A DNA stretch of 64,000 bases from Nitrospirota bacterium. Lineage in GTDB: Bacteria; UBA2233. The notes beneath the pieces were generated by a model, which was given only the letters and a program-made list of their open reading frames with translations, did no database searches and was not told the DNA's origin. The translations under genes and the position numbers were made by a program. The stretch is taken from positions 101,246-165,245 of the forward strand of contig WOZJ01000057.1 of NCBI GenBank assembly GCA_011620345.1, in the 5' to 3' direction. Shown piece after piece: positions 32,710-62,322 of the stretch. The stretch's first letter is position 1. Every line of letters begins with the position of its first letter.

Positions 32710-33591
32710 CTACTGGAGGAGCTCGGCCAACGGGAAATCCTTGAGCTTCAAAACTGTCGTGGAGCCGCGAATGGGAAGCTGGAACAGGCTAGAATCGAAG
32801 CCAGGAGGAACCCTAAATGAGCTGATCCAAAGATGCATACGAACGTGCCGGTTAGCCATGTAGAGTTTTGCGCTTCTAGCGATGGAGAACGAACCTACGT
32901 TGAAGTGCTCTTTGTAGCGTGCAAAGACGAGCACATCTCCCTTGGTGTTCCGGATTTCCCCTTCTTCGCACGGTTCTTGTCCGCAGTTTCCAACGAACCA
33001 TTCCACCCTTCTCGATTTCCAAGCCATGCGGACGCCTGAGCGCGTTGCGGAAATTTCCGGCAGGCCTTGCGGAGCCAATCCTGCCCATCCGATAAGCAGC
33101 CTTGAAAAAGTGAGCCATGTTAAGCCTTCAAGGGTTGTGCCCTGAAGCGAAAGATCCGATGCCGGCCCAACATAGGCCCTGTCTTTGGATGGGTCGAAAA
33201 AGAGAACGTTTGCATTTCTGATAAGAAGACTTGCAAGCGTAAGCCCAAACGGATCTAGAAAATCCATCCGAAACATACCGGGAGGCTGAGAAAAGAGCTC
33301 GACGTGGAAGCGCTCTTTTTTCTTAGTGAATCCTTTCGCCACTTCGATTTCGAACGACCCCCTTGCCTGCCAAGGGAACTCTTGTTGCTGCCTGGCGAAG
33401 AACTTTTGAAGCATCCTGTCTAAGTTTTGCTTCGCCGGCTTATGTAGCGCGCATCCCCCTGCGCAGAGCGCAAGGACCAGTCCGAAGATGAGCCAGTACC
33501 TTAAAGTGAGGACTGATTGAGGATGCTCCGGATCTTTTCCTCGATAGCCTCCGGGGATTCCGGCTTGTTTTCGAGCGCCTTCTTGTAACAT
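32710..33591 (-). CDS. Putative lipoprotein with a LolA/LolB-like (DUF4292-like) fold (start uncertain)
   Basis: Hydrophobic leader ending LALCAGGCA (possible lipobox) followed by a ~230 aa beta-rich domain. Family assignment is weak. Confidence 0.4.
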   Translation of the reverse strand: MLQEGARKQAGIPGGYRGKDPEHPQSVLTLRYWLIFGLVLALCAGGCALHKPAKQNLDRMLQKFFARQQQEFPWQARGSFEIEVAKGFTKKKERFHVELFSQPPGMFRMDFLDPFGLTLASLLIRNANVLFFDPSKDRAYVGPASDLSLQGTTLEGLTWLTFSRLLIGWAGLAPQGLPEISATRSGVRMAWKSRRVEWFVGNCGQEPCEEGEIRNTKGDVLVFARYKEHFNVGSFSIARSAKLYMANRHVRMHLWISSFRVPPGFDSSLFQLPIRGSTTVLKLKDFPLAELLQ

Positions 33592-54869: not shown

Positions 54870-55493
54870 ATGAGGGAAGTGTCAGGCAAAAAAAGCTCTC
54901 GGATCGAGTCCGTTTCGGGTGCCATCAAAGGCGGTGCGCTCGTAGTGTATCCGACGGAGACGTTCTACGCGTTGGGAGCGAGCCTATTTCATTCGCGTGC
55001 GCTTTCGAGAGTGTTCTCCGTAAAGGGCAGAGACCCCTCAAAGCCTTTGCCTTTCATCGCCTCCAGCATCTCTCAAGCGCTTGGGATGCTTGAGGACGAA
55101 TCGGAGACCATCCTTAGGCTGGCGGTTAGTTTTTGGCCGGGGCCTTTGACGATCGTAGGAAGGGCTTCGAGCATTGTCCCTGTTTCTGCCTGTGCCCTCG
55201 ACAAGACGATCGCCATACGCGTCAGTGCCCATCCCGCCGCCCGTGCGTTGGCCAGGTTTTCTGGCTCTCCCGTGACGGCAACATCGGCAAACTTCAGCGG
55301 AGGTCCGCCCGCCAGGTCGCTTGCTGACATGCCAAGTAGGCTGCTTAACCTTGTCGATTGCGTCTTAGACGGCGGTTTACTGCCAGGAGGGCTGCCCTCT
55401 ACTATTGTACGTATGGAAGGGTCCAGTTTGCATGTCCTTAGGGAAGGTGCCGTTCCGTCAGTCGCGTTGTCCCGCGTTGTCCCGCTCTTTTGA
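54870..55493 (+). CDS. tsaC: L-threonylcarbamoyladenylate synthase, YrdC/Sua5 family (TsaC)
   Basis: YrdC domain: GGALVVYPTETFYALGA ... SANFSGGPPA. Confidence 0.75.
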   Translation: MREVSGKKSSRIESVSGAIKGGALVVYPTETFYALGASLFHSRALSRVFSVKGRDPSKPLPFIASSISQALGMLEDESETILRLAVSFWPGPLTIVGRASSIVPVSACALDKTIAIRVSAHPAARALARFSGSPVTATSANFSGGPPARSLADMPSRLLNLVDCVLDGGLLPGGLPSTIVRMEGSSLHVLREGAVPSVALSRVVPLF

Positions 55494-55512
55494 TCAATGG
55501 AGAAAGGGCGTG

Positions 55513-56517
55513 CAACCAGAGGACGGCGATAGATTTCTTAGGACGGTACGGCACCTTTGCACTGGCCCCGTCTCGGCCCTTGGAGGAGAAAGCCTGTCTG
55601 TTCGCCAAGGTAAAGGAAGAGTGTTGATCTCCCGCTTAGGAGGCAGGTATGCATGTCTTGAGACAGAAGGCCTAATGCTCGTGGATCTCGAGGGCAACGT
55701 GCTTTCGGGCATGGGCGATCCGCCCTTCGAGATGGAGTTGCACCTTGGAGTCTACAAAGCGGTTGATGCCGCAAGCTCAGTGTTTTTTTCTCAACCGACG
55801 CTTACGCTTGCGCTGCTGGAAGACGGCCTCTCACCGCATCCTGTAGGCGAACAGGCCTCTTTATGGCTCGGTTTGCTCCCTTCGTTAAGACCTGATGGAT
55901 TGCTGGATGACTATGTTACGGATATTTTGCATGTTTTAAGCTATTCCAATCTATGCCTGCTCCCCAAGAAGGGCGTGGTCACGCTTGGAAGAACGCCCGG
56001 AGAGGCGCTTTGGCTTTGCAGCTTGATCGAAGAGTCCTCTATGGCGACGCTCGAGCTGATCCGCCTAGATTCGGGTTTGCATCAAAGCTTAAAAGAGGCG
56101 AAAATTGAAGAAGCTTTTTTTATTTCTCCGTTTCCTTGGCCTTTATTCGGAAAGGCGCACCGCAAATTCATCTCGGACAAAATCGCCTTGCATCAAGACG
56201 ATCTTGTAGGTTCCCTCGAGGGCCTGCCTCCTTTCGAGACGGTCTTTTGTCTGGCCGAAGTAGCCGATGCTCCCAAAAGGAGGCTTGAGGTAAGATTCAC
56301 CCATGACGGCGTGCGCCTTCTTGGGGTCGAAAAAAGGCTTGAGAATGCAGTGAGAATCGAAGGCGGGTTCCCCGTGTTCGAGGCGTTGTTTTCGGGAAAG
56401 ACTACCCTGGCAAGCGCCGTGCTTCATGGTAGGTTGCAAAGGTCCGGCCTTTCCTTACGCCAACTTCGTCCTTTTTTGAGGCCGCTTGAAGGCTTTTTGC
56501 GCGCAGTGCTGCCATGA
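55513..56517 (+). CDS. Class II aldolase/adducin-like domain protein with metal-binding His residues replaced, plus C-terminal SCP2-like domain
   Basis: GESLSVRQGKG..ISRLGG...LVDLEGN...PPFEMELHLGVYKA matches the class II aldolase N-terminal half. The zinc-ligand H-x-H position reads FFSQPT and NHG reads KKG. C-terminal ~120 aa resembles a sterol-carrier-like fold. GTG start with RBS ggagaaaggg directly after the tsaC stop; the six-frame ORF begins at 55405. Confidence 0.5.
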   Translation, partial: QPEDGDRFLRTVRHLCTGPVSALGGESLSVRQGKGRVLISRLGGRYACLETEGLMLVDLEGNVLSGMGDPPFEMELHLGVYKAVDAASSVFFSQPTLTLALLEDGLSPHPVGEQASLWLGLLPSLRPDGLLDDYVTDILHVLSYSNLCLLPKKGVVTLGRTPGEALWLCSLIEESSMATLELIRLDSGLHQSLKEAKIEEAFFISPFPWPLFGKAHRKFISDKIALHQDDLVGSLEGLPPFETVFCLAEVADAPKRRLEVRFTHDGVRLLGVEKRLENAVRIEGGFPVFEALFSGKTTLASAVLHGRLQRSGLSLRQLRPFLRPLEGFLRAVLP

Positions 56518-58259: not shown

Positions 58260-60027
58260 CGTCCGCCTTCGGCCGCTAGGGGGCAACCCACGCTTGATCT
58301 CCTTTTTTTGGCCATACATTCAACCCTACAGGAGGATGTTTTTTCTGGCTTTTGGTCTCAGCCTTTGGAGCGGCGCGATGTATGCCTTTTCCCCGTGGTT
58401 GGTAGGCATCGGTGTGGACAGGGGAATCCTTGCAGGCAAGCCCCACGTGATCATCCTGTTGGCCGTGCTTATTGGGAGCCTTGAGATACTTCGATGCTTT
58501 TTGGGCTACGCCGGGGAAAGTCTGCTTCAAAAGGCGGGGCAAAAGGTGCTTGCCAATCTTAGAGGACAGCTCTTCTCGCGCTCTCTTTGGCTTCCTTCTG
58601 CCTACTACATAAAAGAGCCTACGGGCAAGGTCGTGACACGCATCACCAACGATGTCCAGGCGATGTCCGAGCTTTTCTCGACAGGCTTAGCCAAGGTGTT
58701 CGTCGACTTGGTCCTGCTCCTGGCCAGCTTGGGTGGGCTTCTTTGGCTGGATGCGCGTCTGTTCGGACTAACTGCCTTAAGCCTCCCGCTTATGGTAGTG
58801 ACGTTTCGGTTTTTCTCGAAAAGACTTATGGATGTCCAGCGGAGAGTGAAAGTTTGCCTATCCAAGATTAACGCCTTCATTTCAGAAAACTTTTCGAACC
58901 TTCCTACGGTTCGGGCGTTGTTTGCCCACGCAGCGCAGATTCAGGGCTTCGAGAGGCTAAACGAAGCATACTGCGAGGCACAGATGGGGCAGGTTCACAT
59001 GAACGGCCTGTTCCAGCCTGCAATGCGCACGATTAACGCGCTCAGCGTTTCGGCATTGCTTTGGGCCGGGGGGTTCTTTGTGCTCAAGGGCAAGATGGAA
59101 CCAGGCGTGCTTGTGGCCTCGCTTATGTACATTCAGCAGATGTACCGACCGCTTCGAGACATGACCGAAAAATACTCGGTCCTGCTTTCCGCTTTCGCCT
59201 CCTTGGAGAGGATCGTCTCTTTTGGAAGTTTAGAAAAAGAGCCCATGAGCCCGTTCCCACGGGCGAAATGCAATGAAGGCCCTCTTTTGCTCAACTACGG
59301 GGTCGAATTTAGAAACGTTTCTCTTTCCTACGACGGAAAGAGAAACGCGCTGGATAGCGTAAGCCTCTGCATAAAAAAAGGAGAGCGTATCGCTTTGGTG
59401 GGCGAGACAGGGGCAGGAAAATCGAGCATGACCAGCCTCATGCTTCGATTCTTCGAGCCGACAGATGGCTCTATCCTTTGGGACGGAAAAGACCTGCACA
59501 CCATTCCGCTTGTAGGCTATCGGAAGACGATTGCTTGGGTGCCGCAATCGATAGGCCTATTTACCGGGACACTTTTGGAGAACCTCACACTTTTTGATGA
59601 GCTCCTTGCTCCCAAGGCGCTGGCCCTCTTAGACCAGGCCGGGCTTTTGGCCTACTTTGAAGCAAAGCCTTCAGGCCTTCGTTTTCGTATTCAAGAAGGA
59701 GGGGCCAACCTCTCGCTCGGAGAAAAGCAGCTCATCGGAATCGTCCGATCTCTCGTGAAAGACCCGGAACTGCTCGTTTTGGATGAGGCCACCTCTGCGC
59801 TCGATCCTTTTACCGAGGGCTTGATTCAACGTGCAGTGGAAAGGCTTCTCCACGACAAGACGGCCCTGATTGTGGCACATCGACTCTATACCGTACAAAC
59901 AGCTTCCAAGATCGTCGTACTCAAGCAGGGCAGAGTAGCCCAGTTGGGAACCCACGCCTCACTCCTCCAGGCTGGAGGCTATTACGCAAGCCTCTTCCAA
60001 GCAGGCCCGCTCGGTTTTCTTCCGTAA
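58252..60027 (+). CDS. ABC exporter, fused permease/ATPase subunit 2 (heterodimer partner)
   Basis: Six TM plus NBD (GETGAGKSSMTSL, LSLGEKQLIGIVRS, LLVLDEATSALD). Start ATGGCTAG overlaps the stop of subunit 1; the six-frame ORF begins at 58201. Confidence 0.85.
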   Translation: MASVRLRPLGGNPRLISFFWPYIQPYRRMFFLAFGLSLWSGAMYAFSPWLVGIGVDRGILAGKPHVIILLAVLIGSLEILRCFLGYAGESLLQKAGQKVLANLRGQLFSRSLWLPSAYYIKEPTGKVVTRITNDVQAMSELFSTGLAKVFVDLVLLLASLGGLLWLDARLFGLTALSLPLMVVTFRFFSKRLMDVQRRVKVCLSKINAFISENFSNLPTVRALFAHAAQIQGFERLNEAYCEAQMGQVHMNGLFQPAMRTINALSVSALLWAGGFFVLKGKMEPGVLVASLMYIQQMYRPLRDMTEKYSVLLSAFASLERIVSFGSLEKEPMSPFPRAKCNEGPLLLNYGVEFRNVSLSYDGKRNALDSVSLCIKKGERIALVGETGAGKSSMTSLMLRFFEPTDGSILWDGKDLHTIPLVGYRKTIAWVPQSIGLFTGTLLENLTLFDELLAPKALALLDQAGLLAYFEAKPSGLRFRIQEGGANLSLGEKQLIGIVRSLVKDPELLVLDEATSALDPFTEGLIQRAVERLLHDKTALIVAHRLYTVQTASKIVVLKQGRVAQLGTHASLLQAGGYYASLFQAGPLGFLP

Positions 60028-60382
60028 GAGGGTCGCTTTTTTTTGGACTAACTGAGAAAGCCTACCGTGGAAAGCCTGGAAAATAAGCCCAAATGAAACC
60101 TTGATTGACACTTGGCTCCATGCTGTGCAAGAATTCGGGTATATCAAAGAGGGTGGGTGGTTGAGGATGAATGTTTTGTCTGGGTTCAGCAACCCTACCA
60201 GCATAACCGAATGGGCGATGCTCCCTTTGGCCTGGCTAGGATCGCTTACGGTACGCAGCGCGCTTCTTTGGGATCTGCTTACAGACGTGCTTTTCGTCAA
60301 CACCGCTCAACCCCCAGTTTAGCAGTTTCGTGGCAATGAAATGTCTTGACTTATCAACTATCCTTAGGGAGGAGGGGAAGCT

Positions 60383-60670
60383 ATGGAGACCATCAACGCC
60401 TTTGCCCAAACATCTGGAACGCTTGTTCAGGCCCCAATCGACATTCTGAACGCCTCGATCGCTACGGTGCCCCAGCTTTTGCTTACCCCATTCCGTTTGA
60501 TTACGGAGGGGCTCACGGGCATTACGGGCGCTTCAAGCGCCCTGTTTGAGGGGTTCTGGGGTTCTTTGAATGCACTCATCATCCCCATTGATGGGTTTTT
60601 GAACAGCAGTGCTGCAACGGTGGCTCTTCCGGCAAACATCACGCCATTCGTAGGGCCGTTTTTGGGTTAA
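60383..60670 (+). CDS. Small hydrophobic protein of unknown family (95 aa), paralog A
   Basis: Strong RBS agggaggagggg 6 nt before the ATG. Ala/Leu/Gly/Ile/Thr/Ser-rich, no Cys, few charges. N-terminus METINAFAQ is shared in pattern with the downstream paralog MEGITAFSQ. Confidence 0.5.
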   Translation: METINAFAQTSGTLVQAPIDILNASIATVPQLLLTPFRLITEGLTGITGASSALFEGFWGSLNALIIPIDGFLNSSAATVALPANITPFVGPFLG

Positions 60671-60700
60671 GCGAAAACAACCAACAAGGAGGAACCTTAA

Positions 60701-60985
60701 ATGGAAGGAATAACCGCCTTTAGTCAAGACTTGGGGGGCGTTCCCCTGGGGGCATTGGCCGATTCCATCAGCGGAATTGGCGATGTAGCCGGCGCCATCT
60801 TTGCCCTGCCTCTGACCTCGGCCAACCTGGTTCTTGAAATTGGCGCTCTCCCTTTCCAGGCGATGCAGGCCATGTTTGAGGCGATGACCGGCTCGGGTGC
60901 CGCGCTCTGGGAATCTGCCACCATCCTACTGACGCCCTTTGACCTAATCGGCGCTTCAATAGCTAACGTTACGACGGTTATCTAG
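60701..60985 (+). CDS. Small hydrophobic protein of unknown family (94 aa), paralog B
   Basis: RBS caaggaggaacc. Same size, composition and N-terminal motif as paralog A. Followed by a hairpin and an intrinsic terminator. Confidence 0.5.
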   Translation: MEGITAFSQDLGGVPLGALADSISGIGDVAGAIFALPLTSANLVLEIGALPFQAMQAMFEAMTGSGAALWESATILLTPFDLIGASIANVTTVI

Positions 60986-61018
60986 CCAAGTTCTTGCCCC
61001 TCGCCGTTTTGTCCTAAT

Positions 61019-61100
61019 CCGTTAGGCTGGACAGGAATTGTCCAGCCTAACGGAGCTACCTGCTCGCTGCAGGCAGAGCGGGGGTAGCTTTGGTTTTTTG
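61019..61100 (+). terminator. Two hairpins: a 14-bp perfect stem (61019-61053), then a rho-independent terminator GCTACC..GGTAGC followed by a T-run (61055-61100)
   Basis: CCGTTAGGCTGGAC-aggaatt-GTCCAGCCTAACGG, then AGCTACC-tgctcgctgcaggcagagcgg-GGGTAGCT-TTGGTTTTTTGG. Confidence 0.6.
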
Positions 61101-61215
61101 GAACCATCTCAAAAGGCTTGACATTGCTCAATGGCGTGTGCAAGATGTTGCTTGCTCTCTATGGTTGTTTCACAAGCTGCAACTGTTGCAAGAATGCGGG
61201 CAAGGGGGGTCCGGG

Positions 61216-61623
61216 ATGGCAGGATCGGGTATGAAGGGGGTTCGTTTTTCTGAAGAGCATATCTGGGTCGGGCTGAAAGACGGCAGGTTTATCGTTGGAG
61301 TAACAGACTGGCTCCAAAGGCAATTGGGGGAGGTTACCTACGTCGATTTGCCCGAAGTAGGGGAAATTCTCGAGCGCGGCGAACCCTTTGGAGAAATCGA
61401 ATCGGCACGCACCATCAAGGAATTGGTAGCGCCCATTTCCGGAGAAGTCCTTCAGGTCAACGCCGACATTGAAAGTGAGCCCATGATTGTAAACGAAGAC
61501 TCTATGGATGAAGGCTGGCTCTTGCAGGTTAGACCTGATGCGCCCGAAGAGTTTGATGAGCTCATGGACGAGGAAGAGTATGAACAATTCCTGGAAAGCC
61601 AAGAAGAGCAGGACGTATTCTAA
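61216..61623 (+). CDS. Glycine cleavage H-protein-like (GcvH fold) with Arg at the lipoyl-lysine position and an acidic C-terminal tail
   Basis: Aligns to E. coli GcvH (EHIWVGL..GVTDW..LGEVTYVDLPEVG ... APISGEVLQVN ... DEGWLLQV). E. coli ESVKAASD corresponds here to ESARTIKE, so the lipoylated Lys aligns to Arg. Start at 61216 or 61231; the six-frame ORF begins at 61090, inside the terminator. Confidence 0.75.
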   Translation: MAGSGMKGVRFSEEHIWVGLKDGRFIVGVTDWLQRQLGEVTYVDLPEVGEILERGEPFGEIESARTIKELVAPISGEVLQVNADIESEPMIVNEDSMDEGWLLQVRPDAPEEFDELMDEEEYEQFLESQEEQDVF

Positions 61624-61684
61624 TCTCGCTCGAGCCGTGAGCTTGAGCCTGCCTTTTAAGATAAGCGACTAGCGACTAAGCGAC

Positions 61685-61716
61685 GCGGCCTTAGGGGTGG
61701 TAGCCCCTAAGGCCGC
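61685..61716. terminator. 13-bp perfect hairpin between convergent genes (putative bidirectional terminator)
   Basis: GCGGCCTTAGGGG-tggtag-CCCCTAAGGCCGC flanked by gttt/aaa. Short tandem repeats AGCGACT and ATCTTAGGCGTT lie nearby. Confidence 0.45.
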
Positions 61717-61755: not shown

Positions 61756-62322
61756 TTAAAACGCCCCTTCTTCGATGGGCGGTGCCAGCGTATCCACGAT
61801 AGGGCTCTCTCCAAGGATCGCGACGAGCAAAGGCCGCAATCCTTGAACGACCGCAGGGAGGCCTCCTGGATATTTTAGCGTGCCGTAAACCAAATCGATC
61901 GTCGACTGGATCGGGTCTTGTGGGTCGCCCACCATTGCGTTGAGCATCGGATATAGAGGGTAGATCAACGGGTCTATGTTGCGGGCGGCAAGCGCTTCCC
62001 TTCCTGCCGGTGAGTTGGCGATACCTACCACTAGGGCGGAAAGCCGGATTACGGTATCGCGTACGTCCTCTGCCGTAATCTGCGAAAGCGCCGGGTTCGT
62101 TCGAAGCTGGTTGGCAAGCTGTACGGTCTGCTGAGTCATGAGCGGGAGAAGATCCGGTGGTACGTTGTAGTGCCGAACATCCAAGGCGTGAAGAAACTCC
62201 TGGGGCGTGACGTGGCGAATGTTCGTATCCAGGTTTCCTTGTTGATCAGCACAGCCTAAAAACCCAAGGGAAAAAAACAAGCAACCGCCTCCTAACACGC
62301 GCCAAAGCTTGCCCATGGTCAT
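61756..62322 (-). CDS. Hypothetical lipoprotein/secreted protein
   Basis: N-terminal hydrophobic leader with FLGC (lipobox-like) followed by a ~165 aa Pro/Leu-rich domain. I recognise no homology. Confidence 0.5.
   Translation of the reverse strand: MTMGKLWRVLGGGCLFFSLGFLGCADQQGNLDTNIRHVTPQEFLHALDVRHYNVPPDLLPLMTQQTVQLANQLRTNPALSQITAEDVRDTVIRLSALVVGIANSPAGREALAARNIDPLIYPLYPMLNAMVGDPQDPIQSTIDLVYGTLKYPGGLPAVVQGLRPLLVAILGESPIVDTLAPPIEEGAF

Follow-up and report, generated by a model that had tools for sequence, protein, structure and literature searches.

Beta-type phenol-soluble modulins (PSM-beta) of staphylococci are acidic peptides of about 44 amino acids (aa) that form amphipathic helices. 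They are encoded by short tandem paralogous genes with strong expression signals, have no signal peptide, depend on the four-component ATP-binding cassette (ABC) exporter Pmt of the ABC-2 type and have a plausible role at hydrophobic interfaces. Class II microcins and class IIb bacteriocins are small, hydrophobic, rich in Gly, Ala and Ser, often anionic and sometimes paired; a small hydrophobic gene accompanies them, and an ABC exporter is encoded close by. WXG100 proteins (EsxA/EsxB) occur as tandem pairs of about 95 aa and are acidic, free of Cys and helical, with a central conserved Trp. Oleosins with their proline knot, exchangeable apolipoproteins, phasins and GvpA are small, abundant, hydrophobic or amphipathic proteins with helices punctuated by Pro and without classical transmembrane helices; GvpA is also acidic and is often encoded in tandem copies. 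Here, a gene pair that has features in common with each of these systems, o1 and o2, was analyzed. It is located in a 64,000-nucleotide stretch of DNA from a Nitrospirota bacterium (contig WOZJ01000057.1, positions 101,246 to 165,245), hereafter called the window, to which all coordinates refer. In the original prediction, which was made from the sequence of the window, o1 and o2 had been described as a two-gene unit for hydrophobic proteins of no recognizable family that might be exported by an adjacent heterodimeric ABC transporter. The analysis described below assigns o1 and o2, together with the upstream gene s51, to a three-gene operon that is confined to the candidate phylum UBA2233 and whose products fall, by sequence, outside every known protein family.

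Organization and Expression Signals of the Operon

Besides the window, seven lineages represented in metagenome assemblies (L001, L005, L006, L007, L014, L016 and L017) yielded the locus, and the o1-o2 pair was present, adjacent and at the same locus in 8 of 8 sampled lineages. In the window, the unit spans approximately 60105-61099 on the + strand in the order P1, s51, o1, o2, hairpin and terminator. The following features were assigned:

60105..60134, + strand: promoter P1, sigma-70-type; TTGACA, 18 nt spacer, AAGAAT, with TG upstream of the -10 hexamer
60167..60322, + strand: s51, a 51-aa gene (MNVLSGFSNPTSITEWAMLPLAWLGSLTVRSALLWDLLTDVLFVNTAQPPV) that was overlooked earlier
60368..60376, + strand: Shine-Dalgarno sequence of o1, GGAGGAGGG, 6 nt ahead of the ATG; rank 1/49, -12.6 kcal/mol
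60383..60670, + strand: o1, 95 aa; acidic and very hydrophobic, with short amphipathic helical segments that each begin at Pro
60685..60693, + strand: Shine-Dalgarno sequence of o2, CAAGGAGGA, 7 nt ahead of the ATG; rank 3/49, -11.4 kcal/mol
60701..60985, + strand: o2, 94 aa; without Lys, Arg, His or Cys, with residues 1-35 variable and the C-terminal 59 nearly invariant
61018..61054, + strand: hairpin in the 3' untranslated region, with a perfect 16-bp stem
61056..61099, + strand: intrinsic terminator, a G+C-rich stem followed by TTTTTT (T-run end at 61099), from terminator scan and fold

The coordinates given earlier for o1 and o2 were correct; of the two lengths of 95 aa, that of o2 had to be changed to 94 aa. 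The 355-bp region upstream of o1 had been taken to be non-coding, which was wrong, since it holds the conserved promoter P1 and s51. With s51 counted, the unit comprises three genes rather than two.

Promoter P1 scored 10/12 in a consensus scan. Its -35 hexamer TTGACA is invariant and its -10 region is kept in 5 of 5 aligned lineages, the deep-branching L007 included. The Shine-Dalgarno sequences of o1 and o2, which had been described as near consensus, were ranked by their pairing energy with the anti-Shine-Dalgarno sequence over 49 candidate starts in the window, and the ranks listed above bear this description out. A long hairpin plus intrinsic terminator had also been predicted and was found: for the 120-nt region 60983-61102, the folding energy was -60.1 kcal/mol (z = -5.7), and 0 of 200 shuffled sequences were as stable. 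The hairpin is preserved by compensatory changes in L001, L005 and L006, e.g., CCGTTAGG...CCTAACGG vs. CCGATAGG...CCTATCGG. Because a conserved promoter, top-ranked Shine-Dalgarno sites, a compensated hairpin and a terminator coincide, the unit is, as judged by these signals, a self-contained operon, and its expression is probably strong.

Two further interpretations of the sequence were rejected. First, the 16-bp hairpin is not one copy of a dispersed repeat, as the sole exact match of its arm in the window is its own hairpin. Second, o1 and o2 are not expressed as a read-through fusion. Their start codons are 318 nt apart and in the same frame in the window, with two stop codons in between; in L001, the start codons are 331 nt apart, which is not a multiple of 3. 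Thus, the common frame in the window arose by chance and does not serve read-through. In an Rfam scan of 59500-61700 (E <= 1), no match was obtained, hence the leader has no known riboswitch or small RNA. The G+C content of the three genes is similar to that of their surroundings and unremarkable.

As a separate observation, P1 (60105-60132) and the promoter upstream of gcvH (61118-61145) have the layout TTGACA-N13-TGTGCAAGA in common, and exact copies of the 9-mer TGTGCAAGA in the 64-kb window are confined to these two promoters. This common layout could indicate shared regulation or merely the form that strong promoters take in this lineage.

The start of s51 is at the same position (ATG or GTG) across all lineages, and s51 is annotated as a gene in L005, L006, L014, L015 and L017. 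Its product has an invariant core, TEW..LP..W.GSL.VR..L.WDL.TDV, with three invariant Trp residues, which is retained even in L007, where the protein is 53-57% identical. The ratio of nonsynonymous to synonymous substitution rates (dN/dS) of s51 was 0.10-0.25 in more divergent pairs, the grand average of hydropathy (GRAVY) of its product is 0.66, and homologs are restricted to this lineage. The possibility that s51 is a third paralog of o1 and o2 was rejected (hhalign probability 0.2%; shuffle z of -0.4 and 1.1).

Coding Status, Constraint and Paralogy of o1 and o2

In pairwise codon comparisons, a third-position bias of substitutions was observed in all three genes. At high divergence, dN/dS of o1 was about 0.08-0.13, and that of o2 was about 0.07-0.23 at higher divergence. 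Since substitutions occur mainly in the third position and dN/dS is low (about 0.05-0.2), o1 and o2 are, on this comparative evidence, real protein-coding genes under purifying selection. The original prediction had allowed for codon usage and conservation to reveal non-coding sequence, and here its assumption of coding sequence was upheld. Constraint is relaxed in residues 1-35 of o2 (dN/dS of 0.16-0.46) as compared to residues 36-94 (0.03-0.2). Positive selection on the N-terminus of o2 was not established, dN/dS values above 1 being confined to three very close pairs with at most two synonymous changes. At the deepest split sampled, i.e., in L007, o1 and o2 are 78% and 72% identical, respectively, vs. 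67% for ABC2, one of the two adjoining ABC proteins, and 70% for the glycine-cleavage H-protein GcvH.

The genes had been regarded as tandem paralogs with similar N-termini (METINAFAQ and MEGITAFSQ). They are probably paralogs, albeit distant ones, to which the sequence comparisons point weakly: o1 and o2 are 27-29% identical, with 14 invariant columns among 18 sequences; the Smith-Waterman score (z = 4.3) was matched by 3 of 2000 composition-preserving shuffles; and hhalign gave E = 0.016 over 38 columns. Among the residues shared without exception by both paralogs are a Trp, an Asp, a C-terminal N-x-T and several Pro and Gly residues. The N-terminal likeness did not hold beyond this genome, as o2 begins with MQGLNTSIEGLGG or MDAVIGFSQDLGA in relatives.

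Distribution and Exchange of the o1-o2 Cassette

As far as the relatives found indicate, the operon is confined to UBA2233 (GTDB), an almost unstudied candidate phylum of small genomes from oil-polluted sites that comprised only two genomes at its description. The ABC2 protein of the window is 96% identical to a protein on contig DDYN01000005.1 (L008) of Nitrospirae bacterium UBA2233 (NCBI: unclassified Nitrospirota). This contig, the sole UBA2233 genome contig recovered, stops inside ABC2, and the trio is missing from that assembly. Samples in which the locus occurs are, e.g., ERZ27283337, ERZ23486260, JGI 3300038309 and 3300035382, SRR19237645 and SRR28849586.

In a sliding-window comparison, L001 and the window were 88-97% identical in nucleotide sequence over most of both flanks and 67-77% identical across approximately 60440-61050 (about 6060-6700 in L001), which takes in the 3' portion of o1, the complete o2 gene and the first hairpin. 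The reverse was observed between L001 and L007, with 91-97% identity in this tract and 47-79% outside of it, and L001 carries an L007-type hairpin directly 3' of o2. By this mosaic pattern, the o1-o2 cassette of L001 is an import from a distant lineage. The imported tract does not include s51. Between the window and L006, identity also drops locally over o2 and the hairpin (60756-61083), though to a lesser extent. Among close lineages, o1, o2 and s51 diverge more than their neighbors, whereas across the deepest split o1 and o2 diverge less.

Comparison with Known Protein Families

Scans of Pfam, NCBIfam, PADLOC and PHROGs (E <= 10) gave no match for the family; in Pfam, 0 of 18 family members had a match. 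Against PDB sequences, the profile gave chance-level matches to the secretin GspD only (E >= 1). When 1.84 billion representative proteins were searched exhaustively with the profile, the three clusters of the family itself were the only matches, and word-indexed searches of 5.8 billion proteins returned only 70-100% identical relatives of o1, o2 and s51. Family scans of genome, viral and metagenome contig collections returned no locus, although the protein database has JGI and ENA copies. By sequence, s51, o1 and o2 are orphans of this lineage, outside every known family. Thus, the expectation that no characterized family would be recognized was confirmed. The orphan status may partly reflect the poor sampling of phylum UBA2233.

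GvpA and WXG100 had been named explicitly as families that do not apply, and the profile searches agree. For GvpA/J/M, no match to Pfam Gas_vesicle was obtained, and gvp genes are absent from the neighborhood. The likeness to oleosins, exchangeable apolipoproteins, phasins and GvpA concerns physical chemistry only: o1 and o2 show no sequence relation to them, and no gvp, polyhydroxyalkanoate or lipid-body genes were found in the neighborhood. Phenol-soluble modulins gave no match in Pfam or NCBIfam (E <= 10). The leaderless amphipathic alpha-helix of o1 and o2 is a PSM-type feature that bears on mode of action and not on membership. In contrast to PSM-beta, o1 and o2 are 94-95 aa long. Precursors of ribosomally synthesized and post-translationally modified peptides (RiPPs) of the NHLP/Nif11 type (TIGR03793, TIGR03798) were not matched in NCBIfam (E <= 10), and the neighboring genes (Sua5-like, aldolase, ABC, GcvH, redoxin, QueG, PlsY, ferredoxin) do not include a RiPP modifying enzyme.

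A relation to WXG100 proteins was considered further. According to this explanation, the two proteins would pair as remote and very hydrophobic relatives of WXG100/ESAT-6 heterodimers, and a type VII-like system whose genes lie elsewhere in the genome would secrete them. The tandem arrangement, the length of about 95 aa, the acidic and Cys-free composition, the missing signal peptide, the helical models, which are of low confidence, and the invariant central Trp speak for it. However, WXG100 (PF06013) was not matched at E <= 10 by o1, o2 or any of the 18 members. The residues W59 and S61 are invariant, with W-G-S in o1 and W-E-S in o2, so that the motif is W-x-S and not the W-x-G expected where a helical hairpin turns, and the hairpin itself is modelled with low confidence. 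Moreover, GRAVY values of +0.8 to +0.96 are far from those of WXG100 proteins, and no type VII secretion ATPase (EssC/EccC, FtsK/SpoIIIE-type) is encoded among the sampled neighboring genes. A WXG100-like nature is therefore regarded as highly improbable.

Physicochemical Properties and Predicted Structure

The extreme hydrophobic composition noted for both proteins was borne out, with GRAVY values of 0.80 (o1) and 0.96 (o2) at a pI of about 4. There is one basic residue in o1 and none in o2, and Cys is absent from both, as had been stated. Hydrophobicity follows a periodicity of 100 degrees per residue (z = 4.0 for o1 and z = 2.5 for o2), which is the signature of amphipathic alpha-helices. 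By inspection, each protein consists of three or four units of 14-22 residues beginning at Pro, e.g., APIDILNASIATV, TPFRLITEGLTGI and IPIDGFLNSSAATV in o1 and TPFDLIGASIANV in o2. Internal repeats in o1 were supported by shuffles (z of about 3.1-3.6).

On the Hessa biological scale, the best 19-mers of o1 and o2 gave +4.9 to +6.6 kcal/mol, as compared to -0.5 kcal/mol for the ATP synthase c subunit of E. coli, which served as control. Because these values are positive, no segment of o1 or o2 should span the membrane unaided, in agreement with the earlier view that a full-length transmembrane helix is lacking. A signal-peptide-like N-terminus was likewise not seen by inspection in either protein, as predicted. 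A protein that is so hydrophobic and yet lacks transmembrane helices would presumably have to oligomerize or settle at a hydrophobic interface so that its surface is buried.

Alternatively, o1, o2 and s51 might be integral membrane micro-subunits, i.e., helical hairpins that are inserted by YidC or held by a partner in a larger complex and in which the conserved Asp and Glu residues are buried and functional. The GRAVY values lie in the range of membrane proteins, residues 29-47 of o2 reach a Kyte-Doolittle 19-mer mean of 1.69, and the invariant Pro, Gly, Trp, Asp and Glu residues and the extreme conservation of the C-terminal two thirds of o2 would suit such a role. In addition, small acidic proteins without a signal peptide are typical YidC-only substrates. 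On the other hand, no 19-mer is predicted to insert by itself, and every hydrophobic stretch is broken by Pro and by Asn, Asp or Glu. The positive-inside rule has no substrate, given the near or complete lack of basic residues, and no candidate partner complex is encoded by nearby genes. Membrane micro-subunits are thus considered unlikely.

The Adjoining ABC Transporter Pair and Possible Export

Both adjoining ABC proteins contain the domains ABC_membrane and ABC_tran only and are generic half-transporters of the ABCB type, with TmrAB, TM287/288, BmrCD and eukaryotic ABCB proteins as their closest solved relatives. Their genes belong to a run of overlapping stops and starts (sua5-like, class II aldolase-like, ABC1, ABC2). 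The linkage of the small genes to the ABC pair, which had been put forward for examination, was found in all relatives. Since the gene order as a whole is identical in every relative found, however, this adjacency has no independent weight.

The ABC pair is central to another explanation, in which o1 and o2 are leaderless secreted peptides, either a PSM-like surfactant or biofilm component or an anionic, microcin-like two-peptide toxin, which are exported by the ABC pair, with s51 as immunity protein or partner. The transporter genes adjoin the small genes in every lineage, and the proteins are small, Cys-free, acidic, amphipathic and rich in Gly, Ala, Ser and Thr. Furthermore, o1-o2 alleles are exchanged and, among close relatives, change more quickly than the flanking sequences, as is typical of genes for cell-cell interaction. 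However, neither ABC protein contains the C39 peptidase domain that marks double-glycine exporters, no membrane-fusion or outer-membrane partner is encoded near the pair, and the exporters are of the generic TmrAB/BmrCD-like kind within a run of housekeeping genes. They also differ from Pmt, the neighbor here being an ABCB-type heterodimer of fused half-transporters. At 95 aa, the proteins are large for such exporters.

The N-termini were compared with double-glycine leaders, which are 15-30 residues long, end in G-G, G-A or G-S and carry hydrophobic residues at -4, -7 and -12. In o2, L-G-[GA] is kept at residues 11-13, which would favor such a leader, but position -4 is occupied by D or G, and the site is preceded by only 13 residues. 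The corresponding site in o1 reads T-S-G, i.e., S-G rather than G-G. A double-glycine leader was rejected, as it is too short and has an unsuitable -4 residue in o2 and ends in S-G in o1; the original prediction had found no convincing leader either.

The genomic context also differs from that of microcins and class IIb bacteriocins. The locus does not have the variable presence of an accessory bacteriocin or microcin locus but occupies the same syntenic position in 8 of 8 sampled lineages; it is core, does not lie in a variable island and has the G+C content of its surroundings. The import in L001 comprises o1-o2 without s51, which argues against a cognate immunity role of s51, and o2 hardly varies over its C-terminal 59 residues. 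Secreted peptides are accordingly thought doubtful. As regards the transporter itself, export of o1 and o2 by the neighboring ABC pair, as originally suggested, is unsupported by the gene content, because a C39 peptidase domain is lacking and the exporter is of the generic ABCB type; the promoter of their own, the missing membrane-fusion partner and the invariant gene order point the same way.

Further Observations in the Window

The window is an ordinary housekeeping region with genes for DnaK, a Clp ATPase, HtrA, DXS, MutS2, FabF, RNase P RNA, PFOR, PurH, PurD and Ccm proteins, and 19 of 20 larger open reading frames (ORFs) scanned have Pfam matches. Downstream of the trio, the glycine-cleavage H-protein gene (61216-61623) has no gcvT or gcvP beside it. 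It separates the trio from a 188-aa ORF on the - strand (61756-62322) with a lipoprotein-like N-terminus (MTMGKLWRVLGGGCLFFSLGFLGCA...), for which no match in Pfam, PADLOC or PHROGs was found. With 82% identity in L007 (vs. 67% for ABC2 and 70% for GcvH), this ORF is a second well-conserved orphan beside the trio. A 292-aa ORF on the - strand (32710-33591) without Pfam match (E <= 1e-5) adjoins a gene for a large tetratricopeptide repeat (TPR) protein with a CcmH/CycH-like TPR domain. The class II aldolase-like ORF of 370 aa (55405-56517) overlaps the end of the sua5-like gene. As its relatives comprise 280 aa and its Pfam domain starts at residue 63, it is probably over-extended at its 5' end.

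Discussion

The preferred explanation, which is proposed tentatively and falls somewhat short of being probable, is that o1 and o2 are leaderless, acidic, amphipathic helical proteins that are abundant, are too hydrophobic to persist as soluble single molecules and assemble at the membrane or another hydrophobic interface. In such a mechanism, o1 and o2 would co-assemble at a membrane leaflet or other hydrophobic interface, perhaps with the Trp-rich s51 protein as a small partner, and the assembly would provide an abundant coat or structural element. The products would most likely not be exported by the neighboring ABC pair. Hetero-assembly, location and structural role are inferred here. The constant presence, adjacency and locus of the pair in eight lineages fit a core component rather than an accessory weapon. 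An abundant protein pair of structural, surface or secreted nature, as originally suggested, is possible.

Several observations weigh against assembly at an interface as the explanation. First, the AlphaFold2 models, whose all-helical form speaks for this explanation, have predicted local distance difference test (pLDDT) scores of 51 (o1) and 56 (o2), which are too low to use, and a Foldseek search of the low-confidence o2 model against the PDB gave 0 matches. Second, cassette import and accelerated divergence between close lineages would be less usual for internal structural parts than for genes whose products are exposed at the surface or take part in competition. Third, the terminator-like site 3' of ABC2 is weak (-8.9 kcal/mol, z = 0.26), and some read-through from the ABC operon into the small genes may therefore occur.

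A more specific and rather improbable extension is that the trio represents an undescribed class of acidic, leaderless and abundant amphipathic proteins that, in oil-associated UBA2233 bacteria, coat or shape either the surface of the cell or a lipid or hydrocarbon body inside it, with the cassette being swapped under selection by phages or competitors.

Lineage-specific orphan genes are to be expected in a phylum with two genomes at its description, and any function of s51, o1 and o2 is entirely a matter of inference. If the proteins are as abundant as their expression signals suggest, they would probably be among the main cell constituents of a whole phylum that has been encountered only in metagenomes from oil-polluted and tailings environments, and no protein family library would contain a counterpart. 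The unusual chemistry, i.e., GRAVY values near +0.9 without a transmembrane segment and, in o2, without a single basic residue, may hint at a novel means of constructing or coating hydrophobic interfaces.

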